64,000 nucleotides of DNA, taken from the NCBI GenBank assembly GCA_052327205.1, contig CM126206.1:284580001-284644000 (forward strand), written 5' to 3'. A program made the translations under genes and the position numbers. Origin of the DNA: Somniosus microcephalus. Taxonomy: Eukaryota. The notes under the pieces are model-generated. The model saw only the letters and a program-made list of their open reading frames with translations, did not search any database and was not told where the DNA came from. Of the stretch, positions 3,165-55,696 are shown piece by piece. Numbering within the stretch: position 1 is the stretch's first letter; every line of letters begins with the position of its first letter.

Positions 3165-3683
3165 TTTGGGTGTGGTTTAAAATGGCGTCTCCTAATGGCT
3201 TAAAATGGCGTCTCCCGCGCTTTCCTTCCTCCCCCGCTGCTGCCAACGCTGCACTCGGCGGTCCTCGTGGCAATGGCGGCGCCTCGCGGGTTTCTGCGCG
3301 TCTCTCTCTCCCTCTCTCTGACGCTGCTCGGCCCCTGAACACCGGCTGCGCCCTGTGCGCTCTGCCCTCTCTCTCTCTCCCCCGTCGACGCTGCTCGGCC
3401 CTTTGCTGTGCCGCTCGGTCGGGCTCTAGCCCGCCACTGTCCGGGAAGGGTCTGCGCACTACCTGTTGCCAGCCCATTTCGCTGGACCACCTCGACTGGA
3501 AAGCCAAGCCTGGCTCTCGACAGCCTCCCCCGCAATTCTCGAGTCTCTGCTGAATGACTGGGCGGTTGCCCGTGGTCGACGCCCGAGTCTCTGGCCTTGA
3601 CCTCCAATCCACTGATCTCCAGGAACGAATCCCCGGGAGGTGATGCAGAGATGCAGGTAGGTTCGAACTTGCCTCGTCTTCAA

Positions 3684-3876
3684 TGTTGTGTCTGGGTATA
3701 ATAAGATACAGACTGCAGCAGAAACGGTACAACAGGTGTTTACTCAACGTGGCTCACAGTTGAACTGACTGTACAGATTACAACTCAGTGCTATATACAG
3801 GTGTGGTCACTGCCGGTACTACAGTATACATGAGCTGTAAAAAGTAGTTCCCCCCCTTAAAGGTACATACATTACA
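3684..3876 (-). repeat. 5' LTR of the left Gypsy element (193 bp)
   Basis: TG..CA termini, adjacent PBS, sequence related to the LTRs at 7458 and 12461. Confidence 0.85.
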
Positions 3877-5032
3877 ACCCCCCCCTCACCCCTTCCTCAC
3901 CCCCTCCTCACCCCCCTCACCCTCTCCTCACCCCTCCTCACCCCCCCTCACCACCTCCTCACCCCCTCCTCACCCCTTCCTCACCCTCCTCACCCTCTCC
4001 TCACACCCTCCTCACCCCCTCCTCACCCTCCTCACCCCCCCTCACCCTCTCCCCACCCTCTCCTCACCCCCTCCTCACCCGCCTCCTCACCCTCTCCTCA
4101 CCCTCTCCTCACCCCCCATCCTCACCCTCCTCACCCCCTCCTCACCCCCCTCACCCCCCCTCACCCTCTCCCCACCCTCTCCTCACCCCTTCCTCACCCC
4201 TTCCTCACCCCCCTCACCCTCTCCTCACCCTCTCCTCACCCCCTCCTCACCCCCTCCTCACCCCCCTCACCCCCCCTCACCCTCTCCCCACCCTCTCCTC
4301 ACCCCCCCACCCCCTCCTCACCCCTTCCTCACCCTCCTCACCCCCTCCTCACCCCCTCCTCACCCCTTCTCACCCTCTCCTCACCCCCTCCTCACCCCCT
4401 CCTCACCCTCCTCACCCCCCTCCTCACCCCCCTTCTCACCCTCTCCTCACCCTCCTCACCCCCTCCTCACCCCCCTCCTCACCCTCCTCACCCCCTCCTC
4501 ACCCCCCCTCACCCTCTCCCCACCCTCTCCTCACCCTCTCCTCACCTCCCCCTCACCCTCTCCTCACCCCCCTCACCCCTTCCTCACCCTCTCCTCACCC
4601 CCCTTCTCACCCTCTCCTCACCCTCCTCACCCCCCTCCTCCCCCCTCACCCTCTCCCCACCCTCTCCTCACCCTCTCCTCACCTCCCCCTCACCCTCTCC
4701 TCACCCTCTCCCCACCCTCTCCCCACCCCCTCCTCACCCCCTCCTCACCTCCCCCTCACCCTCTCCTCACCCTCTCCCCACCCTCTCCTCACCCTCTCCT
4801 CACCCTCTCCTCACCTCCCCCTCACCCTCTCCTCACCCTCTCCCCACCCTCTCCTCACCCTCTCCTCACCCTCTCCTCACCTCCCCCTCACCCTCTCCTC
4901 ACCCTCTCCCCACCCTCTCCCCACCCCCTCCTCACCCCCCTCACCCCCCCTCACCCTCTCCCCACCCTCTCCTCACCCTCTCCTCACCTCCCCCTCACCC
5001 TCTCCTCACCCCCTCCTCATCGCCCTCCCCCA
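3877..5032. repeat. Pyrimidine-rich tandem repeat with a variable (CCTCACCC(C/T)CT)-type unit of ~10-13 bp
   Basis: About 1.15 kb of cctcaccc variants; almost no G on the + strand. Confidence 0.97.
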
Positions 5033-5596
5033 CACTGAACAATCGGAGCTAGTTCAGGAACTGGTTGAGGACACAGAGGGCTCATATCAGCTGAGCAGCT
5101 GGGTTGGGGGGAGGGGTGCGGTGGGAAAGGCTGAAGACCTGATTTGAAATTTTCAGGACGGAGATCGATAGATTGTTGTTAGGTGAGGGTATCAAGGGAT
5201 ATGGAGCAAAGGCAGTTAAATGGAGTTGAAGTGCAGATCAGCCATCGAATGCAATGTGGTAAAGCCTCTGCTGGGCAGCAAACTTGATACCATTTTGATG
5301 AAGGTAAAGTAAGAATAAAAGTGTACTTTTTTTTCTCCAAATTTCAATGGAGGAGAAAGTATTTGACGGTGTTGTAAAAATAAAAATGGGTTTTCTCTGC
5401 TGCCTATTGAACAAGCTGGGCCCTGACTTCGTAAGGATTCCTTTTTTTTCTAGCTTCTCCTGCTCACGTTTACCTCAGAGTAAATCAGATGCGATTATTT
5501 GGCTGACTGATCACTGAAGACAGAATTTCCGTTTGTTAATAAGGACAGGCAAAACCAAATTCACCACTCAGTTTTGGCGAAAGCTCCATACACATA

Positions 5597-7457: not shown

Positions 7458-10400
7458 TGTAGTGTATGTAACCTGAAGAAGGAACTATATTCTGCAGCCC
7501 CTGTATACTGCAGTACCAGTAGTGACCACCCCTGTATATAAGCCTGTGTAGTAACCTTGCATAGTAGTTCCAGTTTTGTCTCTGTTCAGTAAACACCTGT
7601 TATCACCAACTCCTGCAGTCCGTGTCTCAATTACACACGGACGTTACACTGGCGACAAACAGATCTGAACTTACCTACAGTTCTGCACCACCTCACGGGG
7701 ATCCATCCCTGAAGCGAAGTTATTGGAGGTCGAGGCCAGAAGGAAGAAATCCAAAAAGAAAAAAAAACAAACAGCAGAAACGGGCGTCGACCGTGGGCAA
7801 CCGCCCTCTGATTCATCGAATTAGAAGATTTGCAGGAGAGGCTGTCGAGAGTGGGGCTTGGTTATCCAGTCTATGGTGTTCCAGCTAATCGGGCTGGTGG
7901 CAGGTAGTACACTGATCCTTCCTGGGCTGCGGCGGGCTAGAGCTCGATCGGGTGGCTTTTCAACGGGGCCGAGCAGCATTGTCGGGAAGAGGAGAGAGAG
8001 AGAGAGGGTGGAGCACACAGGACGCGGCCGGTGCTACGAAGCCGGGCAGCGTACAGACCCGAGAAGAGGGAGGGAAGTGTCCCATAGGGTCTGCTCTGAC
8101 GACGGGATCAGTAATTAAAATAAAAGAAATTACAAGCGCAGAAAGCCGCGAGCAGCTGCAGTTTGCCACGGGGACCGCGGAGAGCGGCGTTGGCAGCAGC
8201 GCGGGGGGAAGCGCGCGAAGACCATAGGGCGTCGCCATCAAGGCATAAAAACGTCAGCAACAGCACTAGCAGCAGCGGGAAGGCAGAAAGCGCGGGAGGC
8301 GCCATCTTAATCCAGCGGGGAAGAAGGCAAAGCGCAGGAGGCGCCATTTTGTTCAATCGGGGAAGAAGGCAAAGCGCGGGAGGCACCATCTTAGATCTCC
8401 AAGATGCCGAAGACTGGCAATATCACTGCCTTCGATAATGCAATAGAAGACTGGACCACGTATGTGGAAAGAGTCGAAGTATATTGCGAGGCAAATGAAG
8501 TAGCCGATGAGAAAAAGGCATTGGTACTACTAAACTTAATGGGCGCAAGAACGTACGGCCTATTGCGGAACCTGATCACTCCAGTCAAACCGATGGCGAA
8601 GAGTTTTAACGAAATTGTTGATACCCTACAGGAACACCTAAATCCTACACCGCTGCTGATAGCAGAAAGATTTAAATTCCACAAGAGAAATCAGCATAAA
8701 GATGAGAGCAATGCTGATTACCTTACGGAACTACGCGGGCTATCGAAGCACTGCCAGTTCGGAGCAGGACTGGCAGATACCCTACGGGACAAATTTGTCT
8801 GTGGACTCCTGAGTGAAGGAACCCAGAAGAGGTTACTCTCAGAGAAAGAGCTGATGCTAGATAAGGCTTTCAGCGTGGCAGTATCGTACGAAGCAGCAGC
8901 AAGGGGAGCTGCGGAAATACAGCAAAAGCCACAGGAATACGGCACCCATGAAATGACATGGGGATTTGAAAAACGTTATCGCTGTGGCAGAACAACCCAT
9001 GACCAGAAGGACTGCTGGTCCAAGGACAAAACATGCAGGCAATGCAGAAAGATGGGACACATTGCACGAGTTTGCAGGTCCGGGAAGAAGACTAACGACA
9101 ACAAAAAGGCTACTAAGGAACAGTACAGGAAAGTACAAAAGATGACGGACAGTAGTTCCGAAGACCAGAAGAGCGATAGTGAATCCGGGAACAAGAGATT
9201 AACCTGTCTCAAACTACACAACGTAATCGCAAAAGAGGATCACCGAACCATTTGGGTCACCCTCACGATAGCAGGGTCCCAAGTCAAAATGGAATTGGAT
9301 ACAGGATCAGCCCTGACCGTCATGAATCGACGAGACTACGAGCAGCTATTCTCACACATACCCTTGAAAGACACATCCATTGTCTTGAAGACGTATACGG
9401 GGCAGAAAGTATACCCCAGAGGGAAAATAAGGGTGCCTGTCGAATACAATGGCAAGGAAATACAGAAATTGTATCTGTACATACTGCAAGATGGTGGACC
9501 ACCGTTATTGGGATGTGAATGGATCAGAAAGATAAGTTTAGACTGGCACTCCATTCAGGCACTGACTGTGGCTGGTAAAAAGGATGACGACGTCACACCT
9601 GGACGATTGTCAAAAATCTTAGCTAACGCTAAAGAGGTATTTCAACAAGGACTGGGAACTCTTAAAGGCGTAACCGCCTCGATAAAAATAGAAGAGAATG
9701 CAATTCCCAAGTTTGTCAAAGCAAGACTGGTACCGTATGCAATTCGCCCAGCCGCCGAGGCAGAGCTGGAGAATCTGGAGAATGCAGGCATGTTATCTAA
9801 GGTAGACTGGAGCGAGTCGGCGACACCCATCGTTCCTGTCATGAAGAAAACGTTAAACAATAAGTCTGAGGAGCCAAGGAAGGTTCGCATCTGTGGGGAC
9901 TTCAAGGTGACTGTGAACCCAGTCCTTCACACAGTACAGTATCCTCTTCCGAGGATAGAAGATATTTTCGCCTCACTATCTGGAGGGAAGCGTTTTACAA
10001 AAATTGACCTAGCACAAGCATATTTGCAGATGGAGGTTGAAGAATCCTCTAGGAAATATCTCACGATAAACACTCACAAAGGTCTTTATCATTATAATCG
10101 ACTGGTATTCGGAGTAGCATCAGCTCCGGCGATATGGCAAAGAGCGATGGAACAAGTCCTGCAAGGGATTCCGGGGACTCAGTGTTACTTGGACGACATC
10201 CTAGTGACAGGTGAAAATGACAGTGAACACCTTGCCAACCTAGAGCAGGTGCTCACTAGACTAAGAGAACATGGGCTACGAGCCAATCACCCCAAGTGCG
10301 AGTTTTTTAAGAAACAGATATCGTATTGTGGCCACGTGATTGATGAAGAGGGGTTACATAAGTCCCCTGACAAAATTGAAGTGGTAGTTAAGGCTCCAGC

Positions 10401-12651
10401 GCCTGAAAACGTGTTGCAACTGAGGTCATGCCTCGGATTGGTGAATTACTACCATAAGTTTTTGCCGAATTTGGCCACAATTCTGCACCCACTGAACGCC
10501 CTACTACAAACTGGAGTAGCATGGAAATGGAGCGATGAATGTAAGCGGGCCTTTCAGAAGTGTAAAGACCTGATCACTTCAAGAGAAGTATTGGCTCACT
10601 ACAACCCATCACTACCGATAAGACTGGCGTGTGATGCGTCTCCCTGCGGCATTGGAGCGGTACTGTCACATAAATTCCTTGATGGTTCAGAGAGGCCGAT
10701 AGCTTTTGCGTCACGCTCATTAACTTCAGCCGAGCGTAACTACGCCCAGATTGACAGAGAGGCCCTCAGCCTGGTGTGGGGGGTGAAGAAGTTCAATCAC
10801 TACCTGCACGGACAGAAATTTACTCTACTAACTGATCATCAACCTCTTGTCTCCATTTTCAACCTTCAGAAGGGCGTCCCGATAATGACAGCACAACGGC
10901 TATAGAGGTGGTCCCTTTTCCTAGGGGCACACCAATATGACATCGAGTACAAAGGAACTAAACAGCATGGGAATGCTGATGGATTGTCGCGCCTACCGTT
11001 GCCGATGGTGGAAGAAGCACCTGCAGTAGATCCTGTGGAGATATTCCACTCGACCATAATCGAATGTCTACCTGTGACGAATGCAAACATAGAAAAGGAA
11101 ACACGAAATGACCCGACACTCTCCAGGGTCTATGATTTAACGGTGAAGGGATGGCCAGCACATGGCGAACCACTGTTGCCAGCATTCTCGGCAAGAAGAG
11201 AACAGCTGTCAGTGTGCCGAGGAACCTTGATGTGTGGATCCAGAGTAGTAATTCCACCCAAATTGAAGGATAGAGTGCTCAATGAGCTTCATGAGGGTCA
11301 TCTGGGTGGGGTAAAAATGAAGAACTTAGCCAGAGCGTTTGTGTGGTGGCCGGGAATCGATAGAGAAATCGAAGAGATGACCAAGAGCTGTACAGGATGC
11401 CAGAAGGTCCAAAACGCCCCACCACAAGCCCCTCTACATCCATGGGAGTGGCCCTCATCTCCATGGCAAAGGGTGCACATTGATTTTGCTGGTCCATTTA
11501 TGGACTCGATGTTTTTAATTGCAGTGGATGCACATTCAAAGTGGCCAGAGGTAATAAAAATGTCCTCAACCACCACATAAAAAACTATCACAGTCTTACG
11601 AACCATATTCGCCAGAAATGGGCTGCCTGAACAGATTTGCTCCGACAATGGGCCACAGTTTGTGTCTGAAGAGTTCCGGAGGTTCTTAAAGAACAATGGT
11701 GTTAAGCATTACACATCCGCCCCATATCATCCAGCCACCAATGGATTGGCTGAGAGGTTCGTTCAAACATTCAAGAAGGCTATCAAGGCAATGTGTAATG
11801 AAGACATAGCCCTACAACACAAGGTGGATAACTTCTTGTTTGCCTACCGGAATGCGACACATGCGGTTACCAACCAAACTCCAGCCATGATGTTCTTCAA
11901 TCGAAGACTAAGATGCCGCTTGGATTTGGTTAAGCCAAACGTCAGAAGAGATGTGGAGAACAGGCAGTTTCAGAATATGAATGAAAGGCCAACCAGGAGT
12001 TTCAAGATAGGTCAACCAGTTTTGGCCCGGGACTACCGCACAGAGAAATGGCAGCCAGGAACGATCTGCACACGGCAAGGACCTCTAATGTATACCATGG
12101 ACGTTGGAGAGAGCATTGTAAGACGCCATGCTGACCAGATTCTAGAGTCACTGGAAAACATCAAATCTACACCGCGATCCTATACACCTGGTGATGAAAC
12201 CGAAGTACCAATTGCATCTACCTCAGAATCGGTGATATTGGAAGCAGACGAACCAAACAACGACGTTGATCCCGAATCAACTTTGCCAGAAGAACCTGAT
12301 ACCCCAAAGAGGCGTTATCCGGACAGAATCAGGAAGCCTCCTCAAAGACTGAATTTATAATTGATTACTTTCAGCTAATGTATATGGCAACTGTAATTGT
12401 AAATATGTTATTTAATTATTAACCGAATGTTATGTACTGTTTAGCTAAAAGGGGAGGAATTGTAGTGTATGTAACCTGAAGAAGGAACTATATTCTGCAG
12501 CCCCTGTATACTGCAGTACCAGTAGTGACCACCCCTGTATATAAGCCTGTGTAGTAACCTTGCATAGTAGTTCCAGTCTTTTCTCCGTTCAGTAAACACC
12601 TGTTATCACCAACTCCTGCAGTCCGTGTCTCAATTACACACGGACGTTACA
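7458..12651 (+). mobile_element. Full-length Ty3/Gypsy (Mag-like) LTR retrotransposon
   Basis: 191-bp LTRs at 7458-7648 and 12461-12651 (3 mismatches), TSD GTTTT on both sides, PBS TGGCGAC at 7650, PPT AAAAGGGGAGGAA at 12447-12459, single gag-pol frame. Confidence 0.98.
8404..12360 (+). pseudogene. Gag-PR-RT-RNaseH-IN polyprotein in one frame with two premature stops (10903-10905 TAG, 11578-11580 TAA)
   Basis: ORFs 8404-10905, 10984-11580 and 11662-12360 share a frame. Motifs: LDTGS, YLDD, CDAS (RNaseH), HEGH...CxxC, DFAGP, SDNG, NGLAER. Ends RKPPQRLNL. Confidence 0.95.
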
Positions 12652-23414: not shown

Positions 23415-26283
23415 GGGCTGGATTTTGATACTGGGGCGGGCTGGGGTCGTGTAATCCGCATTTCGTGTTAGCCACCCGATTCTAAATTGATGTGGGAGAT
23501 TGATGCGATTTTAACTTAATTGGCCAATTGAGTTCCAACGTGTGGGAACCCATGGCAAATGAGTTTTTCCAGTCTGAAAGTCGCCTCCGATGACGTCATC
23601 ATTGCTGCTGCATTTAAGGTCTGCAACAAGCCTTGCTTCTTCTGCAAACTGCCAACCTTTTGGCCTTTCATGTTAGAGGGACCTGGAGGCAGAATGACCA
23701 GCGAGAGACCTAGGTCTGCTCCCAGATTTGATGATGCTGCCCTGCAAGCTTTAGTAGAGGGAGCAAGAGTACATAAAGAGGTGCTCTTCCCTTCTTCAGG
23801 GAGGAAGAAGCCTCCCCAGCAGACCAAGGCTGTGTGGATCCAGGTGGCAGAGGAGGTCAACTCATTATCAGTAACCCGCAGAACCTGGATTCAGTGCAGG
23901 AAGAGATTTCATGACTTTCTGCGCACTGGAAAAGTGAGTATGAATTTCCCATCACCCACAATCTGATCTCCATGGCCTCTCCTCACCAGCACTCAGCTTT
24001 AGCAATCTCTTCCTCCACATCCCACTTGACATTGACACCCATGCGCCCTTACCCATTCCCTCTCTCTCTGTGGTCACATTCACCTAACTATTTGACTATG
24101 CAGCCCTCACACTCCCTATCACTGTGATGCTATGAAAACAACTGACAACACACAGGGAGGGCCCTTGGTCTTGCCACTTCACTCCATCTTTGTCTCCTTC
24201 TAAGCATCTATGCTATGGATTCTCTACACTCACTCCTTCATTCTCACTCAAACTCCACTTGTCTCCCTCATTGCAGGAAAAGAGAGCTCATAATAAGAGA
24301 GAAAGAGTGAGGACAGGAGGAGGGCCACCCTCAGTAGCCCACCTCACCCCCTGGGAGGATGCAGTCCTGGAGATCGTGGGAGTGGAGGACGATGCGCAAG
24401 TGGGGGACCGGCAGACGGGTGCATCACAGCAAGCTGGTGACAGAATTGTTTTCCATCTTTCTCAATGACATTGTATGAGTCGTTGATAATGATTCTGAAG
24501 CTCTAACAGATGGACTTATGATCATCTGCAATATGCAATGTGCATGTAACCTTGGCATCACATCTCTGACTCTTTCCTTTACTCCCCCACAGGACCATCG
24601 CAAGCACCCGTCCCCACTAGCCAGGAGGAACAGCATGAGCCTCAAGGCTCCTCAGAGGAAGCTGCAACCTCTGAGGGCGCAGCGTCAGCAGAATTCAGCA
24701 CACCCAGCACCAGCGCAGACACTCACACCTCGGTGGGACCATCGCAAGATAGAGTAGAGTTGTCACCTGGTGTATCACAGCTCACAAGTGAGAATCAGCA
24801 GATTGTGGAGACAGGGACAGCAGTGGAGAGTGCTAGTCGGAGGGCGCAGGACTCTGCCAGCTCGGCTCAGCTGCATGTCGACCCTCTGCCTCTGGGTCCA
24901 TCCATAAGATCAGCGGTGCTGGAACTCCAGGAACAGATGCAGGAGTCTCTTGCAGGTTTTGTTTCCAGGGTCGCTGTAAGTGTGGAGTGAATGGAGGAGT
25001 CCATTGTGAACATGAGCAGAGCCTTTGAGGAGTCATTGGCGCATGAACGCATCACCATGGAAAGGATGGCAACCTCCATGGAGGTGATAAGTCGCCAGAG
25101 TGCTGAAAACAAGGTGAGTGTTCTGAATAGAATGACATCTCTGGAGGAGCGATGGTCTTCTATTGAACAGAGAAACCAGACCTTCATGGAAGTCCTTCTG
25201 AGTAGGACTGCCAGTGCAGATACGGGTCCCCATGGCCCCCCAGATGTGCAGCAAGGTGCTCTCATGCCACTTGCAAATGCTGAGGGGGACCTGACCCATG
25301 AGAGGGAAGTTGGTGGCAGACATCAAGGAAGTGGGGGCTCCTCTCCAAGCGCTCACACGACCATGCCACTGCAAAGCCCTCGGTGAGAGCCCCACCAGAG
25401 TCCACACCCATCTGAGATTGGCGTCTCAACCCCTGCACAGCCGCAGGAGCAGCAGACTGTTGACGAGCCCTCACAGGTTCGCAACCCCAGAGGAAGCCCG
25501 CCAAAGGTGTCGAGACAGGAGCAGCGGGAAAGTGAGCAAGGGGCCTCCACATCAGCTGAAGCCACAGGGGAAGCACCACGTAGGAGCACGCATAAGAGAA
25601 AGATACTGCACAAATAGTCACAAGGGCAGTCACTTGGGTGAAATTTGATGTTTTATGTTATAAAGCCATCAGATGATTACTGTAAATAAAAAATCTGATG
25701 GCTACTGCTGTAGTTGTGGCGTGTGTCATTTCGCTAATGGGACTTCCACATTGAGGGCTTAGGATTACTTGGTATATGCCTCAGTTGAGGAAGCGCTCAG
25801 TAAAGGTAGCGAGAGGGGTTTCCCAGGAGGTCACACTGGAGATGGGTGTCAGGCTCCAACCTTCCACAGCTGTGGTTATGCCTTCTAAAAGTTCCCCCAG
25901 ACCTGAGACAACAAAGTCCTGCCACCTGCAAATAATGGCTGATCAAATATCCTATTTAATGGTGGAGCTGCAGCTAATAGTCAGCAATCCAATTGTGCTC
26001 CCGTCAGGTTTCACCGTTGTGTTTCAGAGCAGGCGTGCTTCATGTCGGAAAAGGGTTAAAATCACCAAGGCCTATCAAAATGGCATTATAGAGGCAATTT
26101 AGTGCTTGTTAAGTGCCTTAACGGCCTATCCCACCTCTTGGAGGCGGGACGGAGATGGGACCAGTAGACACGATTTAATGAAAATTGCTTGGAGGCGGGG
26201 TTGGGCCCGCCCGCCAGTTTTTGCAATTTTATACCCCTACACGCCTCCAATCCCGCCTCAATGGCCCGATGACAATCAAGCAC
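23415..26283 (+). mobile_element. PIF/Harbinger derivative carrying only the Myb/SANT-like gene
   Basis: Left end GGGCTGGATTTT. The right subterminal region 26090-26283 matches the reverse complement of the left end of the Harbinger MITE at 47569. Right TIR is degraded. Confidence 0.75.
23694..25617 (+). pseudogene. Three-exon Myb/SANT-like DNA-binding protein gene (exons 23694-23933, 24277-24436, 24593-25617) with two TGA stops
   Basis: APRFDDAALQALVE...W..VAEEVN...RTWIQCRKRFHD...RTGGGPP is the trihelix/MSANTD signature. GT-AG introns in phase. In-frame TGA at 24988 and 25384. AATAAA at 25685. Confidence 0.85.
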
Positions 26284-28202
26284 GGTGTAGCAGAGAGACA
26301 TAGCTCTTACAAGCTGGAGGCAAGGCACACAATTCTTACTGCACGAGCCAAGATGGAGGATGAACCTCTGAGTCATACCCATAATGCAATGCCACACTAC
26401 CGTATAAACTGGTGTACCAGGACATTGAATACATGACCCATTACCTTAAATACTGGTGAATGTGAACCCTTAATATTTGGCTCCATCTGGTGGATAACTT
26501 AAACATTACATCCCAGATTACTATATCCCTCCCCTCTTAAGTTGAACATTAATTTCTTAACAACATTCTTAAAAAGTCCCATAAGGAAACTCCTTTAACG
26601 ATCGTCCATACTGAACGAATCTAGCAGGTCGTTATCAATTTCTCTGGTGGCTCGTGAGACCTTGGTGAATGTCTTACAGTCAAGTCCCTGCTTGGTTGTG
26701 GTAGAGCCACCTGCTGCTCCTGAGCAGTACTCAGAGTATCTGATTCTGCTACGATGGTTTCCTCTTGACGAAGGGGTCCAGGTGGAACTGGCTCTGTTCG
26801 TGGTGGTGGTACCACCGATGCATTTGGATAACTGGGGGCCAACTTGTCCTCCAACATCTCCTCTGGAACCTCCATTTCGATTTCCCCTTGTCTGGTCAGT
26901 TTCTGATCTACATGTCTGCGTACTACCTGACCAGTTCCCACCATGACCGTATATGATACTGGACTGGTCATTGAGTCTATGACGCCAGGAATCCATTTTG
27001 GACCATAACTGAAATTCCTGGTAAGGACCGCATCTCCTTCTCCAAAACTGCAGCTCTTTGTCCTTCTGTCATGGTTCTCCTTTTGTTTGATTTGTCGATG
27101 TTCCACCTTCCTTTTTAGGTCTGGGTGAACCAGGTCAAGAGTGGAGCGTAGTCGACGTCCTAACAACAGCTCAGCAGGAGAGAGTCCTGTGGTGGATTGA
27201 GGTGTTATTCTGTAGCTGAACAGAACTCGTGACACCTTGGCCAAACTCCCTTCTGCACTTTTTTTCATCATCTCCTTAAATGTTTGTACGGCTCTCTCTG
27301 CAAGGCCATTTGAAGATGGATGATATGGAGCTGAGGTCACGTGCACTATGCCATTGTTTCTCATGAACTCTTTTGTTTCTGTACTCACAAAACACGTGGC
27401 ATTGTCACTTACTACGATCTCCGGTAGCCCTTGATTACTAAAACTCCGATGCAGGCAGTCTATAGTAACAGTAAATAAAGCAGAATTTACAGGATAAACA
27501 TCCATCCATTTGGAATGGGCATCAATGATTATGAGGAACATCTTTCCCATGAATGGACCCGCATAATCTACATGTAATCTTCTCCATGGTTTATCCGGCC
27601 ACTCCCAGGGGTGGAGAGGAGCCGCTGCTGGTGCCTTCCTGTGTACTTGACAAGTGCTGCATGTCTTGACTAGATTTTCTATCTCCTCATCTAGTTTTGG
27701 CCACCACAAGTAACTCCTTGCCAAGGCTTTCATACGTGAAACTCCAGGATGACACTGATGTAGTTGCCCTAGGATAGACTGTCGTGCTGGCTGTGGAATA
27801 ATCACTCGTGCTCCCCACAACACGCAACCATCCTGCACACCCAGCTCTGTCTTCCTGACACTGTAAGGTGTGAAATCAGTCCCTTCCGGATGCTGTGGCC
27901 AACCCCTCATCACATATTCTCAGACTCTAGACAGTACTAGATCTTTACCGGTCCATGTCCTTACTTGTTCTGCGGTCACAATTGCCGTGTCCGTGTCCTC
28001 CAACATCAAAACTCTGTCCTCTGGAGCTGCATGGATAGGTGTACCTGGCAGTGGAAGACGGCTCAAGGCATCTGCGTTCCCATGGTACTTGCCCACCTTG
28101 TAAATGATGACATACTCATATGCCCTCAACGACACTGCCCACCTCTGGATCTGCGGTGACACCATCTGTGGTACTGCTTTCATTTCATTAAAAAGAGATA
28201 GA

Positions 28203-31200
28203 TGTTAAGTACGTGTATTGTATTGAACAATTAACACAAAGACTTAAACGTATAACTCAAACAGGTCTTTACTGGTTGGAGGTAGGGACTGCACGTAGGT
28301 CTTTACTTCATGCCCACAGGCGGGAACTGAGGGGAGATCAGTACCCACAATACTATTTATACCCCTATGGCCAGGAGTGGTACTGCGTATCACTACGCCC
28401 TACAAGTAGTGCAGTCCCGTCCATAGGTTCAAAGTAGCACACATATTACATACACAACATTCCTCCCTTCTTAGCTTTACAGTCATCTCCCCATTTAACA
28501 TAACGTAATAACATATATACATATATAACTTCAGGTTTACATAACAGAATAACATAGATACATAGATAACTTCATGTCAAAACAGATCACAGATTCAGTC
28601 TCTGCAGAAAACAGTTCACAGATTCAATCTCTGTGGTGTAGTCGGTTCACGTTGCTGGAGTGACTCATTCAATAGTCCTTCCATGGATTTAACAGTTTGA
28701 ACTTCCGAAATGAATTGGCTCTGTTCGGAGGGACCACGTGTGTGATCTGGTAGAGGTAATAATGGTTCAGATGGGTCATCTTCTGTTTCGACTTTTCCTT
28801 TTCTGCTTCTTGGAGACTCTCTGGGCTCCACTGTCAGCTGCCAGCTGCATGCGCAGTTCCTCCTTCTCTTCCTCCTTTTTCCGTAGTAGAGCCACCTTCT
28901 CCCGATGTTCCGTAGACTTTCGGTGCTCCTCCATGATTTCTGTATGGTGGGAGTCGAAGTTACAAGTTGGGCAGGGCAGGACATAGTAATATTCGGTGTC
29001 GTCCTGATCTAGGCCAGCGAGAGGGTCTTCTATTTCCTCCATACCCAGCTGGGCGTTAGCCAGCTTTTGTTCCAAGTCCAGACATCTTTCCTGAAGAGAC
29101 TTCTTCATGCGTACCTCTTCATCCAGCTTTTTCTGGGCTTTCAGCAAGTCGTTTACTAATGACCTCATTTGAGATTTTACTACTTCAACTTCTTTTGGAG
29201 ATTGATTGATCGGACTATTCAATCCCTCTACCGGAGCAGCTGTTTCAGCGGTCTGTTGTTCTACGTTGACGTGAGTCAGCGTACTTTTGGCATCCAAGGG
29301 CTGCTCTGTTGCAGTCATCTCAGTCTGTGTTGCCACCTCAGCTCTTCCAATAACCTTTGAGAGCTCCGAACCCCTTTCGTTTGAATATTGAAGTTCGTGT
29401 TCAAGTTTTTCCCATTTCAGAGTCCTGTCCTTCAGCATATGCAGGAGTTGGCTGACCGTTAACTCCTCTGACATCAGACGTTTTGTGTGCTCCTGCTCCA
29501 TTTGCTCCAGCAGCTGCTTCTGTTGTCTTTCCAGATGTTCTCACTCTATATCAAAGAACTCTTTCGTCGCATTCATCTCTTGCTCAAAACGGCGAATCAT
29601 TTGTTCTAATTGCTGTTGCAGTTTGAAATGGAGTTGAGTTCGAGCCCGGTGTCCCTCAGAAATGTGCATGTCAGTAGACTGGACAGACTCAGAATTCTCT
29701 ATCTCAGTGGAATTCTGTGCTGAAACTTTGTCTTTTGCACACGGGTTGGTCTTACCATCATCAGTTCCAGAGTCTGGGTTGATTATGTTCACCGAGTTCT
29801 CACTCGTTATTGTTTGTAGGAAATGCCAGTCCATATTCATTTTCCTAATCCACTCCCGTCCTAGTAGTGGAGGACCTCCTTCAGATATCACATATAAGTC
29901 CATTATTTGACTGTCTTCGCCCTTGTGGACCACTGCAACCTCTATTTTCCTGATGGGGTACACTCTTTGCCCCGTGTATGTTTTCAATATAATCCCCGTA
30001 TCCTGTAGGGGAATATGTTGGAATAACTTTCCGTAATCTTTCTTATTTATGACCGTCAATGCCGATCCAGTGTCCAATTCCAGTTTTACTTGGACTCCTT
30101 CTATCTGAAGAGTGACCCAAATTGTCTGGAGGTCTGCACCCTTACCAGCGTTGAGTACTCTTAAGCTAGCCAGTTCATTACAGCTTAAGCTAGCCAGTTC
30201 ATTACTGCTAGCGTCTGAATCGGACTCCTGTTCGGTCACCTTGTGTACCTTTGCGTATTTTCCTTGCGGTGACTTCTTGTTGCTGGTCTTCTTCCCTGAC
30301 CTGCATACTCTAGCTATATGTCCAAGCCTACCACAAGTTCTACATTCTTGGTTTTTAAACCAACACTGGTTCTGATCATGCGTTGTCTTTCCACAACGAT
30401 AACATTTGCCAGAACTCACACCCAATTTGTGTGCACTGAGCTCCGGTGACCGTAGCTGCATTACTGCCGTGCCTCTCGCTGCGGCTTCGTGTGCTGCTGC
30501 CATAGTGACCGCCTTCTCAAGCGTCAGCTCATTCTCCTCGAGGAGTCGCTTTTGTGTATCCTGTTTAAATAAACCACACACAAATTTGTCTCGTAGTGCA
30601 TCTGTCAGTCCCGTTCCAAACTGGCAATATTTCGCTAATTTACGCAATTCCAGCAAATATTCAGCATTGCTTTCATGCTGTAGCTGCCTTCTGTCATAAA
30701 ATTTAAATCGTTCCGCTAGCATCAGCGGCGTGGGGTTTAGATGATCTTTCAGGACAGTAACAATCTCATCGAACGTCTTATCCGTCGGTTCATCTGGTGA
30801 TAACAGGTGTTTCAATTGCCCGTATGTCTTCGCACCCATTAAATTTAATAATGTTAGAGCTTTATCTTGGTCACGAATTTTATTGGCCTTACAATAATTT
30901 TTTACTCTTTCAACATATATGGCCCAATCTTCGAGGTCACTATCAAAGGTGCTAATATTCCCGTGTTTAGGCATCTTCTTCTCTTCTCGAGAACAACACA
31001 AGTATTGCTTCACTTATTTCTTGTTTCTGAAAATTCTTATTAATTTTCTAAGATGGCAGTTTCCCACTTCTGCCTTCTTCCCCAGCGGTTTTCCCGCGAA
31101 AAATGGCGGCTTTCCCGCGCTTCTCGCTCTCCCCGCCCACTTCAATGGCGGTTTTCCCGCGCTTCTCGTCGCTGACTTTCAGCCCGACTGCGGCCCTTAT

Positions 31201-31905
31201 CTCCTGTGCGATCGCTGGTGCGCCGCCCGCCCGAAGCGGTTCTCAGCCCTTATCACCGGTGCGATCGCTGGCCCGCTAAGCGCCTCCCGCTTGAAGCGGC
31301 TCCCGGCCTCTGGCTCACCCGCTCGCGCGGCTCTTGCTCGCTCCCTCCCGGGCTCTGGCTTACCCGCTCGCGCATTTCACCGCGGCTCTTATCAGGGATT
31401 GCGATCGCCCTTATCTCCCGATCGGTGACCCTGTCTTTGCAGCCAACGCTGCTCGGCTTACCCACGAGGTTATGGAGGCTTCAGGGTCCTAATGCCTGTC
31501 GCTTCCAGTCGCTGGAAGCTGTCAGGATTTCTGCTGCCCTTCAGTTTTCAGTGGGGTGTTGAGGATTGAAACCTCTCTTCAACGTCCTGTCTTTGGACGA
31601 AGCCGCCGTGGAATAACTGCCGCAGGGTTCGAACCGACTCGTCGCCAATGTTAAGTATGTGTATTGTATTGAACAATTAACACAAAGACTTAAACGTATA
31701 ACTCAAACAGGTCTTTACTGGTTGGAGGTAGGGACTGCACGTAGGTCTTTACTTCATGCCCACAGGCGGGAACTGAGGGGAGATCAGTACCCACAGTACT
31801 ATTTATACCCCTATGGCCAGGAGTGGTACTGCGTATCACTACGCCCTACAAGTAGTGCAGTCCTGTCCATAGGTTCAAAGTAGCACACATATTACATACA
31901 CAACA
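28203..31905 (-). mobile_element. Nested non-autonomous Gypsy-derived LTR element: gag-protease fused to captured host-gene fragments, no RT/RH/IN
   Basis: 257-bp LTRs at 28203-28459 and 31649-31905 (3 mismatches), TSD ATAGA (28198-28202, 31906-31910), PBS TGGCGACGAG, PPT AAGAAGGGAGGAA; interrupts the host RNaseH. Confidence 0.97.
28776..30974 (-). CDS. Chimeric ORF gag-PR-(STK10/SLK coil)-(OPTN coil)-(DNAJC21 zinc finger), with one in-frame TGA at 29541-29543
   Basis: MPKHGNISTFD gag, two CCHC knuckles, LDTGS. ORFs 29541-31013 and 28776-29501 are in the same frame. Downstream segments resemble host proteins (see findings). Confidence 0.8.
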
Positions 31906-34900
31906 ATAGAAGAGGTTTATGATCAGTGCATATGGTGAATTTCCTGCCATATATGTACTTGTGAAACCTCTGTAACCCAAACATTACTGCTAACCCCTCT
32001 TTATCTAACTGGGAATAGTTTTTTTCCGCTGGTGTCAGAGTTCGAGACATAAACCCTATTGGTCTTTCTGTTCCATCTTCCAAGCTGTGTGAAAGAACCG
32101 CCCCCACCCCGTAAGGTGAAGCATCACAAGAGAGAATGATGTCTTTCTCTGCATTGTAGTGAACCAGCACATCCGAGGACAGCATCAGTTTCTTGGACTG
32201 TTCAAATGAAACCCTCTGTTCCTCTTCCCACTGTCACTGTGTCTCCTTACGCAGAAGTTTGTGAAGAAGTGCTAACACTGTTGCCAAGTTTGGTAAAAAT
32301 CTGTTATAATAGTTTAGCAGTCCCAGGTAAGCTTTTAACTCAGTCACATTGGTAGGAGCTGGGGCCTCCTGCAGTGCTTGTACCTTCTCCTTGATTGGAT
32401 GGAGCCCGGTGGCATCCACTCTGTGTCCCAGGAACATGGCCTCATTCCCCAGGAAAGTGCACTTACTCCTCTTGAGCCGTAACCCAGCCTTATCCAATCT
32501 TTGTAGTACCTCTCTCAGAGTGCTCAGATGCTCCTGGCCGGTTCTTTCTGTCACCAGAATGTCATCCAGATAGATTGAAACATGTGGGATCCCTTGCAGT
32601 ACACCCTCGATAGTCCTCTGGAAAATAGCTGGACTAGATGAGACACCGAATGGTAAGCGGTTATAGGTAAACAAACCCTTGTGTGTATTTATGGTTACAT
32701 ACTTCTTGGATTCCTCATCTAGTGTAATCTGCAAGTATGCATGACTCATATCCAGCTTCGTGAATTTCTTCCCTCCAGCCAGGTTCGCAAAGAGATCCTC
32801 TGTTTTGGGAATAGGATACTGTTCTAGTTTAGACACCCTATTTACTGTCAATTCATAATCTCCACAGAGTCTTACCGAATTGTCCGGTTTTAAAACAGGT
32901 ACAATGGGAGCTGCCCATTCTGAACATTTCACGGGTTCCAGTATGTTCTCGCTCAAAAGACGGTCAAGCTCAGCCTCTACCTTCGGTTTCATGGCATACG
33001 GCACAGGTTGTTGTTTAAAAAACCTTGGCAGTGCCTCCTTGTCTACATAAATCTTAGCTGGGGGGCCATTAAATGTGCCAAGTTCTTCCTTGAACACGTT
33101 CTCATGTTCAATCAACACTTCTTGCAAAGACAACTGTTTGCCTCCCTCTATTTGATTTATTGCTCCCCAATCTAATTTAAGTTCTTGTATCCAGCCCCGA
33201 CCTAACAGGTTTGGTCTGGAACCCGATACTACAACTACAGGTAGCTGTTCCACGGTGTCCCTGTGTTGCACAGTTACAGTAGCTGTACCCAATGTCACCA
33301 CTCGTTCACCGGTATATGTTTTAAGCTGCATAGAACAAGACTTTAACTCTGGAACTTTTGCACGGTTCCACAATTTTGAGTACTCCTCCCTGTTCATTAT
33401 GGTCACACCGCATCCTGTATCCACTTCAAAGTTGACCTTAGAGTCATTTACTGTCAGTTGCAAAGTGATAGGATCCACTTTTGGAATGTTCTCTACCATA
33501 CTATGCATTATGCACATGTCGTCTTCTTTCTCAGCTTCTCCGCTGATGTAATGTGCTCCCTGTTTTTTCACTTCTCTTCCTAGGTTTTGCTTTTCTCCCC
33601 CTTTTGGTTTGTATTCCTCCATGGTTGCTTTTGCCCTGCATGCACATTTTATATGTCCTTTTTTCCCACACTTGTGGCACTTTTCCTCCAGAAACCTGCA
33701 TTCCCTCGCCAGGTGATCACCATTGCATCTATAACACACCTTCACATGCTCATGTTGTGGTTTCTGATGCATGTTTAACATGTGCACAATAACCTGACCT
33801 GCAACTTGCTTTGTAGTAGCCCAGTCTGAACCTTATATTTCTTTTACATCTTGGTTCGCTGTCTCTATGGCTTGAGCAAGTTCCAACGCTTTTTCATATG
33901 TAAGCCCAGTCTCGGACAATAATCTCCGCTGCATTCGATCATCCATTATCCCGCAAACTAGCCTATCTCGCAGCATGTCTTTCAGGTTGTTGCCGTAATT
34001 GCAATCGTGTGCCAATTTCCTCAACACCGCTACATAATCCAATGCAGTCTCTCCCGGTTTCCTGTTCCCTGAATTAAATTTGAAACGCTGTACAATCTCA
34101 CTCAGTCTGGGATTGAAATGGTCCTTCAGCAAGGCCAGTAAGTTAGCAAATGATCTGTCTCCAGGCTTTTCAGGACTGCATAAGTTTCTCATCAAACTAT
34201 ACGTCTGACTTCCCACGGAAGTGAGCAAAATCGCTCTCCTTTTTCCGACGTCATTTATATCATTTGCTTCAAAGAAATGCATCAACACCTCGCAGTATTC
34301 ATCCCAGGTCTGCGTCTGAACATCAAAAGCAGAGATCTTTCCTACCGTAGCAGCCATGATCCGTTATTCAGTGCTCCTTTTCTTTTTTTTTCTTCGTCAA
34401 GATGTGATCTGTTGGTCCTCGTCGCCAATATGTGATATCCGAGTGGTAAGGTCAGAAACTGAGATAAGCGAGATATTAGGAACAAAACCCAACTGTTTAT
34501 TTACACGGTGAAGCAGAGAGACATAGCTCTTACAAGCTGGAGGCAAGCACACAATTCTTACTGCACGAGCCAAGATGGAGGATGAACCTCTGCGTCATAC
34601 CCATAATGCAATGCCACATTACCGTATAAACTGGTGTACCAGGACATTGAATACATGACCCATTACCTTAAATACTGGTGAATGTGAACCCTTAATATTT
34701 GGCTCCATCTGGTGGATAACTTAAACATTACATCCCAGATTACTATACAAAATTAATCCAATTGAGTAGCAAAGTGTCTGTTTGCTTTCCAATTGGTTTG
34801 GGAAGGCAGTGCACCCGGAAGATGGAGCAATGGCGGGAGGGTGGGGGCGGAATGGTTCAAGGTGGAAGGTCATGTGATGAAACCTTCAGGAATACGCTCA

Positions 34901-40000: not shown

Positions 40001-40097
40001 GGCTGGCAGGGGCCGTGCCGTGCGCTGGCCTGGTTTGAATGTGAATTCCGTTTCATTCCTTTATTGGTTCCCCCTCTCGCGCTGCAGCTCCTGACAG
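40000..40097 (+). other. EXOC3: Probable non-coding exon 1 of EXOC3 (5' end approximate)
   Basis: Lies in the CpG island, ends at a strong donor GTAAGA; the ATG is in a downstream exon. Confidence 0.65.
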
Positions 40098-40169
40098 GTA
40101 AGAGGCCGTGTGAGGCGGCGGCCGGACCGAGCCGAGCCTGGGGCCTGTGGTGCGGCTCGGAGAGTCATT

Positions 40170-40815
40170 GTCATCACAGCCCCAGGGTCGGGCAGGCGGT
40201 GTCATCACAGCCCCAGGGTCGGGCAGGCGGTGTCATCACAGCCCCAGGGTCGGGCAGGCGGTGTCACTCCAGCCCCAGGGTTGGGCAGGCGGTGTCGCCC
40301 CAGCCCCAGGGTCGGGCAGGCGGTGTCACCACAGCCCCAGGGTCGGGCAGGCGGTGTCACCACAGCCCCAGGGTCGGGCAGGCGGTGCCACCCCAGCCCC
40401 AGGGTCGGGCAGGCGGTGCCACCCCAGCCCCAGGGTCGGGCAGGCGGTGCCACCCCAGCCCCAGGGTCGGGCAGGCGGTGCCACCCCAGCCCCAGGGTCG
40501 GGCAGGCGGTGCCACCCCAGCCCCAGGGTCGGGCAGGCGGTGCCACCCCAGCCCCAGGGTCGGGCAGGCGGTGCCACCCCAGCCCCAGGGTCGGGCAGGC
40601 GGTGCCACCCCAGCCCCAGGGTCGGGCAGGCGGTGCCACCCCAGCCCCAGGGTCGGGCAGGCGGTGCCACCCCAGCCCCAGGGTCGGGCAGGCGGTGCCA
40701 CCCCAGCCCCAGGGTCGGGCAGGCGGTGCCACCCCAGCCCCAGGGTCGGGCAGGCGGTGCCACCCCAGCCCCAGGGTCGGGCAGGCGGTGCCACCCCAGC
40801 CCCAGGGTCGGGCAG
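40170..40815. repeat. GC-rich 31-bp minisatellite, ~21 copies
   Basis: Unit GCCACCCCAGCCCCAGGGTCGGGCAGGCGGT. Confidence 0.98.
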
Positions 40816-41154
40816 TTCCACTGCTCCAGGACTTGGTATTTTTGCAGTCTCATAGCCTTGCAATCTGTTCTATTCCCCAAATCCAGCAATGTATATCATT
40901 GCAGTCTCAGGGCCTGGCACTGGGGATCATTACATTTCCAAGACCCGGCACTGGGTCCCATCAGTTCTAGTGTCGGGCACTCTGTGTCGTTGCTGCCCAA
41001 CATTATCGTGTTATTACTCACCCATGTGTTGTTAGTTGTTACTGTGCCAGGGTTAGTGGAGTGCGTTGTTAGTGTCCAACAATCCAGTGTCGTGTCAGAA
41101 TCTGAGTCCAGCACTGCCTATCCCTTTGGTCCCAGTGTGTTATGGCTAATGTAC

Positions 41155-53483: not shown

Positions 53484-54817
53484 AAAAAGCTGGAGATGTA
53501 ACAGATATTAAGCAGGTGCAGAGGGTGGGGGGAGGAAGGAATTGAAGGAACAGTCTGTGCTTCTGTAAGAGGCAGGAAAGATAAAATGTTGCAAATGGGA
53601 ATGGCAAAATCATACAGCATGCAAAATGGTGGCAGGGGTTATAGTTTGAAATTATTGAACTCAATGTTGAGTCCAGAAAAATGTGTAGTTTTACTGTTTT
53701 AGTATATGTGTATAGATCCCTTCCACATCACAAGTGCACCACTGATCACCAGGGCAAAAAAAATCAATGAGATGTGTTCATTGCCAGGAGTTAGTCATTG
53801 GCGATGGGAGATACCCCTCTGTTTATATTCCCCACATGACTTTCTCCTCGGGCAGTTTACCAACTGCACAGAGACAGTGAACACACCACTTGCTCCCAAG
53901 CCTCTGAAATGTTACTGTTGAACTGGCAGATAGGAAATGTGCAAGAACAACCCACTAATGCTGTTCTATCTTCCTGCTGAGCACCTGCCCACAATTGGAT
54001 GAATAGCAACTGAGTAGATTGGGGAATCGTGGGCACAAACTCACCTCACCATTCCATGACACCATCTATAGCCAGCTTTCCTCATATACTGGAGGGACAG
54101 TTAGATTTAGGTAGGATTAAATTTTGCAACATTGCAGCAAGATATGTTCAAACACTGTTCAATGCCCATCTTTGCAAACACATTTAGACCTGTGGTTATA
54201 AATTCAGCTACTCTCACAAGCAAGTGTCTGTAGACAGCTTGGAATCGGGCAGGTTTCTATTAAGGAAAAAAATGAAATCCTGTGCATTGAGCGCATCCAA
54301 AAATATAACCCAGTGGGAAAAGAATTACTGTTTTTAAAGCATTGTGAATGCATTCTCTCTACAACCCCTTCCATCCCATATTGTCATAATGAGACACGAA
54401 CCTTGGAAAAAAGCAACAGACTCATGAAATAAATGCAAGTGTGTTGTAAACAGGGAGGTTAACTGCCATTGGGAATAAATAAAATGTGTCTCAGCTTGCA
54501 TTGTTTGAACTTTTTATTTTATTTAGCAGCATATAAATTTACAGCACAGAAGGAGGCTGTTTGGCCCATCGTGTCTTTGCTGGCTTCAAAAATTAACCAA
54601 ATTTTCCTTAAAAGATGTAATGGTCTCTACCTTAATCCTCTAAAGAAATTTATCCTAACCCCTCTCCTCACTGTCTTAGTAAAAGATTTGCAAAACATTA
54701 TTTGAAATTATGATCCTCATTGAAAAGATTTTTCTCTGTTTGTATTCTTGTGGAGCAATATTACTGCCAACCCAGTGACCATACACCAGCTAAAGCTCCT
54801 TCTTGTCTGGCTTTCAG

Positions 54818-55499
54818 TTCCAGAGATTGTGCAAGAGGCCTGTGAACTGATTGAACGAGGAGAGCTGCTTTTAGCCCATCGAAAGCTGATGGACCTGGAG
54901 TGTTCCCGCGATGACCTTATGTATGAGCAGTATCGTATGGATAGCAAGAACACGCATGACATGAAACTCATCCAGGCCTACTTCACTGAGGTGCAGAACC
55001 TCTCGGAGCAAATGGGAAAGCAGATCTGGATGCTGGTGCAAAGGTCTTCGGTAACGGTCCGCAGTGATCCAGCCCAGGTCGTCTCAATGATTCGAATCAT
55101 TGAGAGAGAGGAAAAAATTGATAAGCGGATGCTTGACCGGCAGAAACAGACAGGGTTCATTCCTCCCGGCAGACCAAAAAGATGGAAAGCCAAGTTGTTT
55201 GCGGTGCTAGAACAGACTGTTGCCAATCGGATTGAGGCCAGTCAGTCCGATACGCGGGAGCTAGACAAAATGTGGCTTGTGCGTCACCTGGAGCTCACGC
55301 GCAAGTATGTTCTTGAGGACTTGCTGGTCATGAAGAACTTGATGGCGCAGTGTTTTCCTCCTCACTACAACATCTTCAAAATACTTCAGAATTTGTATCA
55401 CCAGGGACTAGTGGCTCGTGTGGAGGAACTTGCCTCCGAGGATTTGGAGGCCAATGAAATTGTTTCACTTCTGACCTGGGTTCTAAATACATATCACAG
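54818..55499 (+). CDS. EXOC3: EXOC3 coding exon 3
   Basis: VPEIVQE...AHRKLMDLECSRDDLMYEQYRMD...PPGRPKRWK...EANEIVSLLTWVLNTY; 682 nt with AG/GT boundaries. Confidence 0.98.
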
Positions 55500-55696
55500 G
55501 TAAGAGTTTAATTTGACGATGCACGACTGCATGTGGGGTATAAAACTGCAGCTTCCCTCCTGTGATTTCTCCCAGTATGGTGAGTTCCCATTCTGACCCA
55601 CGTCATCAGAGTGTCGGGAGTTGCAGAAATTTCCTGGTTGGTGGGGAAAACCGGAAGAAAATTAGAGGCGCGTCCCTGTGGGACCAAAAATATATA

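Follow-up and report, generated by a model that had tools for sequence, protein, structure and literature searches.

How did a piece of the host gene for optineurin (OPTN) come to lie inside a retrotransposon, and what might it do there? The question arose at positions 29034-29471 of a 64,000-nucleotide (nt) stretch of Somniosus microcephalus contig CM126206.1 (hereafter the window). A sequence-only reading had taken these positions for a middle OPTN coiled coil, captured from spliced mRNA by an element with a Gag gene, and had suggested that its TQT motif could bind LC8 or that the piece could act as an OPTN decoy. We conclude, with a probability of about 0.97, that a full-length Gypsy long terminal repeat (LTR) element captured host mRNAs through template jumps of reverse transcriptase (RT). 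For the OPTN piece itself, we hold it somewhat more probable than the alternatives together that it fills out the reading frame as a mildly constrained coiled coil and does not perform optineurin's signalling or autophagy job. The sequence-only reading could not reveal that the piece descends, by trimming, from a capture of six exons, or that it belongs to a family with more than 10,000 search candidates.

Identity and spliced origin of the optineurin piece

The minus-strand translation of 29034-29471 matched the previously quoted peptide exactly, and the plus strand was closed. Those coordinates lie inside the OPTN piece, and the true match is slightly wider (29483-29032, minus strand). A protein homologue search returned 22 proteins out of 540 candidates; 21 were named optineurin and the remaining one was a fused gene model with OPTN domains. 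The top homologues were sawshark OPTN (71% identity, E 6e-48), and pairwise alignment with residues 226-384 of Pristiophorus (sawshark) OPTN gave 114 of 159 identical residues (72%). The donor was therefore a shark OPTN, and the identification first made from sequence alone was borne out. Pfam and PDB sequence searches gave the piece no name; it sits between OPTN's Pfam domains. The TQT motif lies at 29330-29322 (minus strand), within VATQTE.

Family searches of the genome yielded two candidate host genes, on contigs C17 and C41. The C17 gene could be aligned with shark OPTN one exon after another, at protein identities mostly of 68-98%; the similarity of C41 was no more than weak, and we read it as the NEMO paralogue. 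When aligned to C17, the element piece corresponded to four consecutive exons with identities of 92, 81, 87 and 89%, the second block (81%) carrying a 21-nt deletion in the element. Over the four exons, 407 of 452 aligned bases were identical (~90%). Three GT...AG introns of the host gene, 552, 2017 and 2469 nt long, were missing at the element's exon joins (within 29367-29379, 29194-29210 and 29079-29093), and direct comparison of the introns with the element found no match to any of them. Because four exons are joined and three GT-AG introns are gone, the piece was captured from spliced mRNA. Alignment to the host gene thus upheld the earlier supposition that several OPTN exons are spanned: exon junctions are crossed, and the element holds no intron DNA. 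A contig from a sequencing run of another organism (X10, taken to be RNA by guess only) has an identical first join and continues into the next exon. Host and element also have two indel states in common that the gene of a relative (organism C) lacks; the donor was therefore the lineage's own OPTN.

Structure of the carrier element

The OPTN piece belongs to an element of ~3.7 kb nested within an unrelated outer Gypsy element, whose Gag-protease is 33% identical to that of the inner one. The inner element has the hallmarks of Gypsy elements: TG...CA LTRs, a target duplication, a primer site and a purine tract. Its two LTRs of 257 base pairs (bp) differ by 1.2%, and the target duplication is 5 bp. 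A single frame runs through Gag, with two knuckles, and the protease, and then through in-frame STK10, OPTN and zinc-finger pieces. Domain searches found RT, RNase H and integrase neither in the window element nor in its sister copies, which are therefore non-autonomous. It is thus a young non-autonomous Ty3/Gypsy LTR element, which, given its 5-bp duplication, single frame and two knuckles, may belong to the Mag clade. The window copy is interrupted by a stop codon (29541-29543) ahead of the OPTN piece; all 30 sister copies fetched were open at this position. The features are as follows, from the 5' end of the element, with the outer element last.

31906-31910: target-site duplication ATAGA, copy 1
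31649-31905, minus strand: 5' LTR, 257 bp, TG...CA, 3 differences in 257 from the 3' LTR
31638-31647, minus strand: primer-binding site TGGCGACGAG, shared with the outer element and with the full-length parents; presumably a tRNA-Ser match
30129-30974, minus strand: Gag, with two CCHC-type knuckles (starts 30404 and 30344)
29826-30128, minus strand: aspartic protease, DTG motif at 30074
29658-29804, minus strand: captured STK10 piece (STK10 ~400-479)
29484-29657, minus strand: captured STK10 PKK coiled coil (STK10 616-679; PF12474, E 3.5e-8)
29032-29483, minus strand: captured spliced optineurin piece (OPTN 226-384, four exons)
29322-29330, minus strand: TQT motif, candidate LC8 anchor, inherited from OPTN
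28779-29033, minus strand: captured piece with a C2H2 zinc finger (28973-28905) and a coil; the open frame stops at 28776-28778
28616-28789, minus strand: out-of-frame remnant, STK10 324-390 plus the parent's integrase C-terminal tail
28460-28472, minus strand: polypurine tract
28203-28459, minus strand: 3' LTR, 257 bp
28198-28202: target-site duplication ATAGA, copy 2
26281-34747, minus strand: outer unrelated Gypsy element (Gag-protease-RT ... integrase; LTRs ~26281-26525 and 34504-34747)

The 5' leader (31014-31637) consists of short G+C-rich repeats and is only patchily alike (~70-90%) between copies whose LTRs are 98% alike.

Parent family and history of the cargo

The genome also contains a full-length family with one frame of ~1335 amino acids (range 1335-1409) encoding Gag, protease, RT, RNase H and integrase. 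The order from protease to integrase was confirmed on one parent copy, the RT motif was present in all six copies fetched, and an integrase core was present in 30 of 30 loci found with the C-terminal tail that parents and cargo copies share. The parent Gag-protease was 93-96% identical to that of a long cargo copy, and the primer site was the same. Cargo copies depart from the parent just past the protease, where STK10 starts, and rejoin it in the integrase tail. When the shared tail was used as a query it gave 108,456 candidates, and parent LTR pairs were mostly 98-100% alike (L156-L161).

The first cargo was STK10, present as three rearranged pieces with 93% identity to sawshark STK10; an assignment to SLK proved wrong. 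Three forms of the OPTN-bearing cargo were distinguished by their length. In the long form, six OPTN exon blocks were present in 30 of 30 loci, mostly 95-100% identical to the host, and they shared one frame with Gag-protease in the copies examined. This form spans OPTN 131 up to 428, including the LC3-interacting region (LIR, DSFVEI), and the ends of the capture show microhomologies of 9 and 7 nt with STK10. The medium form stops at OPTN 384, is followed by an intact zf-C2H2_jaz finger and keeps the LIR. The short form, to which the window copy belongs, has also lost OPTN 131-225 with the LIR, at another microhomology. Both trimming points in OPTN show apparent microhomology, and all trimming events seen in the piece preserve the frame.

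The Gag-protease of the short form was only 72-74% identical to the parent family. Between the window copy and long copies, third positions differed by 0.26-0.47 in Gag-protease and by 0.07-0.16 in the cargo, with a step at the protease end. Synonymous divergence (dS) between short and long copies was likewise 0.78 in Gag-protease and 0.18 in the cargo. Because divergence drops at the protease end, we read the cargo as having moved onto a second Gag-protease lineage.

The same position has received other host genes. Sister copies were found in which obscurin immunoglobulin (Ig) domains, KMT2A or a myosin-tail-like coil replaces OPTN. The obscurin cargo has two to three Ig domains in frame, 59-62% identical to coelacanth obscurin (L050-L055, L057, L058). 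Titin was rejected as the source in favour of an obscurin-type Ig, in a search whose range of 1580-4510 amino acids could not have included full titin. The KMT2A cargo (2505-2676, 91-92% to sawshark) lies directly behind the protease (L051, L054, L058) and presumably includes a Taspase-1 cleavage site. The myosin-tail-like coil precedes the zinc finger in ten copies (L091-L096, L098-L100, L103), with a PF01576 match on L094, and we assume it to be cingulin-like (CGNL1). We likewise suppose the zinc-finger donor to be DNAJC21-like; homologue and PDB searches returned generic fingers only and named no donor, and a PF21884 search for it returned a different locus. The donors thus number at least four named genes (STK10, OPTN, obscurin and KMT2A) and two unnamed ones.

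We conclude that events took the following order. A full-length Gypsy element packaged host mRNAs, its RT jumping between templates at microhomologies of 7-10 nt. STK10 first took the place of RT, RNase H and integrase, in frame; the spliced six-exon stretch of OPTN then entered the STK10 cargo, and a zinc-finger piece joined it. Later jumps removed the front of OPTN, including the LIR, and shifted the cargo behind the second Gag-protease, giving the form seen in the window. Amplification would have relied on the element's own Gag, protease, LTRs, primer site and purine tract, with RT and integrase supplied by full-length relatives. The product would be a Gag-protease with a host-derived tail in the former Pol position. 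The capture junctions are observed, and established knowledge points to template switching as the process behind them.

Abundance and spread of the family

When the 6.45 Gb genome was searched, the OPTN piece as query gave 16,226 candidates and the tail gave 17,043; these are search matches and not copy numbers. In both searches, 150 of 150 scored matches were at 99-100%. Whole shark OPTN as the query gave 23,840 candidates, 66 of them scored. Four full-length sister copies had LTR pairs 99.2-99.6% alike, and all four had their own 5-bp duplications at different target sites. The knuckle, DTG motif and OPTN lay in a single open frame in 26 of 30 fetched short copies, and frames of at least 741 amino acids were present in 102 of the 107 best Gag-protease matches.

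In runs X1 and X2, from organisms A and B, contig depth was some 10^5 over the host exons and 5-13 over the intron; run X3 (organism C) had a flat depth of 12 across exons and intron. Contig depth is not a copy number, and only the contrast between exon and intron was used. On this contrast, A and B share the amplification, and C lacks it. No Gag-fused relatives appeared among the 22 homologues, the top 120 of 1445 matches of an STK10 search or the 6 matches of another search, a weak negative as repeats are rarely annotated.

Selection on the cargo

We next compared ratios of nonsynonymous to synonymous change (dN/dS) among the three forms. Gag and protease gave 0.17-0.29. For the OPTN piece, dN/dS was 0.45 between 30 short and 30 long copies (Fisher p 0.018) and 0.79 among long copies. 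A second set drew 15 copies from the 30 short ones, another 15 from the 30 long ones and 14 from the 17 medium ones. In it, short versus medium copies gave 0.35 (p 0.005) unweighted and 0.49 (p 0.044) with transition weighting, short versus long copies gave 0.46 (p 0.027) unweighted, and medium versus long copies gave 1.1 unweighted and 1.5 weighted. These comparisons of short with medium and long copies suggest weak constraint at best, on the branch leading to the window form.

The adjacent zinc finger has strongly diverged from the intact finger of the older copies. Its 23 codons show 19 replacement and ~2 silent changes, yet none of the four zinc ligands has been lost, and 3 of 30 short copies carry intermediate fingers. 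The replacement rate exceeded the nearby silent rate (Fisher p 0.005); a replacement/silent test within the finger was not significant (p 0.2-0.4). Positive selection on the finger is possible. Because several of the changes are clustered, that part of them may be one event.

Under the reading that we favour, the OPTN piece would be a rod-linker-rod filler that keeps a long translatable frame where Pol was, tolerated as a coiled-coil tail on Gag-protease under mild constraint at the protein level. A single-sequence structure model is of this kind, with two long helices around a low-confidence linker. Several points weigh against this account. In the window form the final STK10 piece cannot be read in frame; an open frame through to the end is therefore not required. 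No full-length helper carrying the window form's own Gag-protease was found among its 107 best matches (0/107), and a pattern search was also empty. The copies were found through protein searches, which favour in-frame forms, and open frames are expected in young copies anyway. The dN/dS values are pairwise counts on natural copies, and the pairs are not independent. With transition weighting, the short-versus-long ratio became 0.64 (p 0.18); the selection signal is thus modest and fades with the comparison and the correction.

Alternative roles for the optineurin piece

The most ambitious alternative is a working accessory tail assembled from a library of host-mRNA parts, in which the OPTN rod and LC8 site would be kept for Gag-protease pairing or transport, the LIR cut for escape and the finger positively selected. 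We regard it as tentative and clearly less probable than the filler. If true, the birth of an accessory gene would be seen mid-process, with every intermediate still within one genome.

A narrower version of this idea, which we consider rather unlikely, is that the TQT site was selected as an LC8-binding module, with LC8 and the coils pairing two Gag-protease chains, in place of the pairing once provided by Pol, or linking particles to transport. All 30 short copies retain the motif, as do 16 of 17 medium and 25 of 30 long ones, and the linker that holds it has the lowest dN/dS (0.27-0.35), with EVATQTE unchanged between flanks that are both altered in the window copy relative to long copies. 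The 30 short copies, however, were chosen for identity to the query. By our estimate, seven residues would be kept by chance about 1 time in 4 when ~1/6 have changed, so that retention of TQT is no more than chance allows. The motif stood at the same site in only 18 of 27 OPTN homologues (residues 180-330 scanned), and sister forms without OPTN thrive. In the structure model, the TQT residues (71-73) are a low-confidence, frayed helix end just before a disordered linker.

By the flank preferences given in the excerpted text of PMC6607443, the element site satisfies four of five (hydrogen-bonding residue at -4, small residue at -2, acidic residue at +2, no proline) and lacks the basic residue at -3. 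LC8Pred gives the human OPTN site a high score and includes it among its predictions (row 161), but the site is absent from LC8Hub and Mentha (PMC6607443 supplement). According to the same excerpts, numerous TQT peptides fail to bind LC8 (PMC6607443). Binding of LC8 by the element is plausible. A genome search for LC8 returned no unbroken LC8 frame, and a full-text literature search found no paper joining optineurin, LC8 and TQT.

Somewhat more doubtful is the view that the piece is a strictly neutral passenger on a successful Gag-protease and LTR, its low dN/dS reflecting small counts and mutational bias. The ratios among long copies and between medium and long copies suit a passenger, as do the repeated trimming and swapping of cargo and the loss of significance in the weighted short-versus-long comparison. 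Against it, short versus medium copies stayed below 1 under both weightings, every trimming of OPTN kept the frame, and the finger retained its four ligands through ~19 replacements.

That the piece is a decoy, pairing with host OPTN or its partners and so blunting clearance of particles by autophagy, is improbable. The coiled coils could pair with host OPTN, and the long and medium forms hold the LIR within OPTN 131-428 and 131-384, respectively. In excerpts from the literature, TBK1 binds OPTN 26-119 (PMC5027247), and the LIR is the LC3-binding motif (PMC5962687). Shark OPTN has its NEMO-like domain at 44-111, CC2-LZ at 497-590 and zinc finger at 641-666, all outside the longest capture (131-428). 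The idea is weak because these TBK1- and ubiquitin-binding parts were never captured. The commonest form, moreover, has cut out the LIR, a change more in keeping with evasion of LC3 than with mimicry, and its piece has drifted ~10% from the host in DNA. Loss of the LIR may help the element to escape autophagy.

Work on gene capture in plants has suggested that host sequence shields an element at the RNA level by making small-RNA silencing costly, as silencing here would also hit OPTN and STK10 mRNA. The high identity of long copies to most host exons (95-100%) and the 23,840 OPTN-matching candidates are in keeping with such a shield, but the commonest form is the farthest from the host (87-92%) and its synonymous sites are unprotected (dS 0.18), and we judge the idea very improbable. 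It is hardly credible that the piece was captured at the DNA level, is a processed pseudogene of the usual kind or came from a different species, given the exact removal of introns, the position of the piece between two LTRs with a target duplication, and the two host indel states missing from the relative's gene.

Comparison with known systems

The mechanism is known LTR-mediated retroposition; what stands out is the scale, the in-frame fusion to Gag-protease and the preserved intermediates. In the animal cases covered by the available excerpts of PMC5131818, as here, partial spliced mRNAs replace the internal frame between LTRs, microsimilarity marks the switch points, several parent genes contribute to one element, and non-autonomous copying continues for further rounds, a process seen here in the 150 of 150 scored matches at 99-100%. 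Those excerpts list 15 polymorphic retrocopies in fly, 5 of 7 in zebrafish and a four-gene 'Super' retrocopy at a single locus in mouse (PMC5131818). Unlike the cases excerpted there, one form here has ~17,000 candidates, the cargo continues the frame of a still intact Gag-protease and bears signs of selection, and intermediate forms have been preserved.

Maize Bs1, as far as the excerpts of PMC5131818 and PMC7264820 describe it, is also an LTR element with pieces of host genes (three in Bs1) that was recopied after capture. Bs1 has one to five copies, in contrast to the thousands of the shark family, with its at least four named donors and its cargo moved between two Gag-protease lineages. 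Excerpts of PMC7264820 and PMC8672886 also describe plant capture cases and zebrafish elements holding immune genes. A full-text literature search, with subscription journals, repeat libraries and bioRxiv supplements outside its range, turned up neither this shark family nor any OPTN-bearing element, and no Gag-fused mosaic or copy number of this kind.

Acutely transforming retroviruses of the gag-onc type are a further parallel: Gag is joined in frame to spliced host sequence that replaces pol, helpers are needed and templates are switched. Unlike them, the shark element has no env and no retroviral Gag, descends from a Gypsy-type parent and spreads in the germ line, and its cargo pieces lack the catalytic and signalling domains of their donors. 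Compared with optineurin itself, the window form keeps residues 226-384 (131-428 in older copies) and the TQT site; the LIR is confined to older copies. It differs from optineurin in the absence of the TBK1-binding N-terminus, CC2-LZ/UBAN and the C-terminal zinc finger, as well as in the loss of the LIR, the 21-nt deletion and the ~10% drift in DNA.

Within the literature excerpted, captures of host genes by LTR elements are few and mostly decaying; here a multi-gene mosaic fused to Gag is a major repeat family of a shark genome. The parent, the capture steps, the trimmings and the exchange of the Gag-protease chassis are all still readable in one genome. With thousands of copies, selection on captured host pieces becomes testable, at the step that lies behind viral oncogenes and accessory genes.

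The host OPTN gene in the assembly

The assembled host OPTN (C17, ~85884655-85885539) departs from 27-30 of 30 long copies by two additional bases and by two substitutions in the TQTE codons. In single-copy, intron-bearing contigs from X1 and X2 the first extra base was absent, and several further indels relative to the assembly were seen nearby. Every read contig covering the two TQT positions reads as the element (TQT); the host-specific X1 and X2 contigs stop short of the motif, so the host allele there was not directly seen in A or B. Three of the 30 long copies have TPT in place of TQT. On the strength of the read contigs, a frameshifted host OPTN that has lost TQT was rejected as an assembly error, and we treat the host gene as intact. 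The error perhaps stems from element copies defeating polishing. Host OPTN exons in the assembly thus carry errors that mimic a broken gene, and searches for OPTN, STK10 and the other donors in this genome are swamped by element copies.

Other features

At C3:354658487-354658909, an intronless C-terminal STK10/SLK-like PKK stretch lies beside a fragment of a long interspersed nuclear element, apparently as a separate retrocopy. In the window, two more Gypsy elements face each other at 1-3176 (minus strand) and 8395-12360 (plus strand), with Gag-protease 61% and 57% identical to that of the cargo element. Tandem arrays of a C-rich 11-bp unit (3859-5050) and a G+C-rich 31-bp unit (40030-40918) are also present. 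An open frame at 54724-55503 (plus strand) matches Sec6 (PF06046, E 1e-44) and is probably an exon of a host exocyst gene, presumably EXOC3; the elements may lie in or near that gene.

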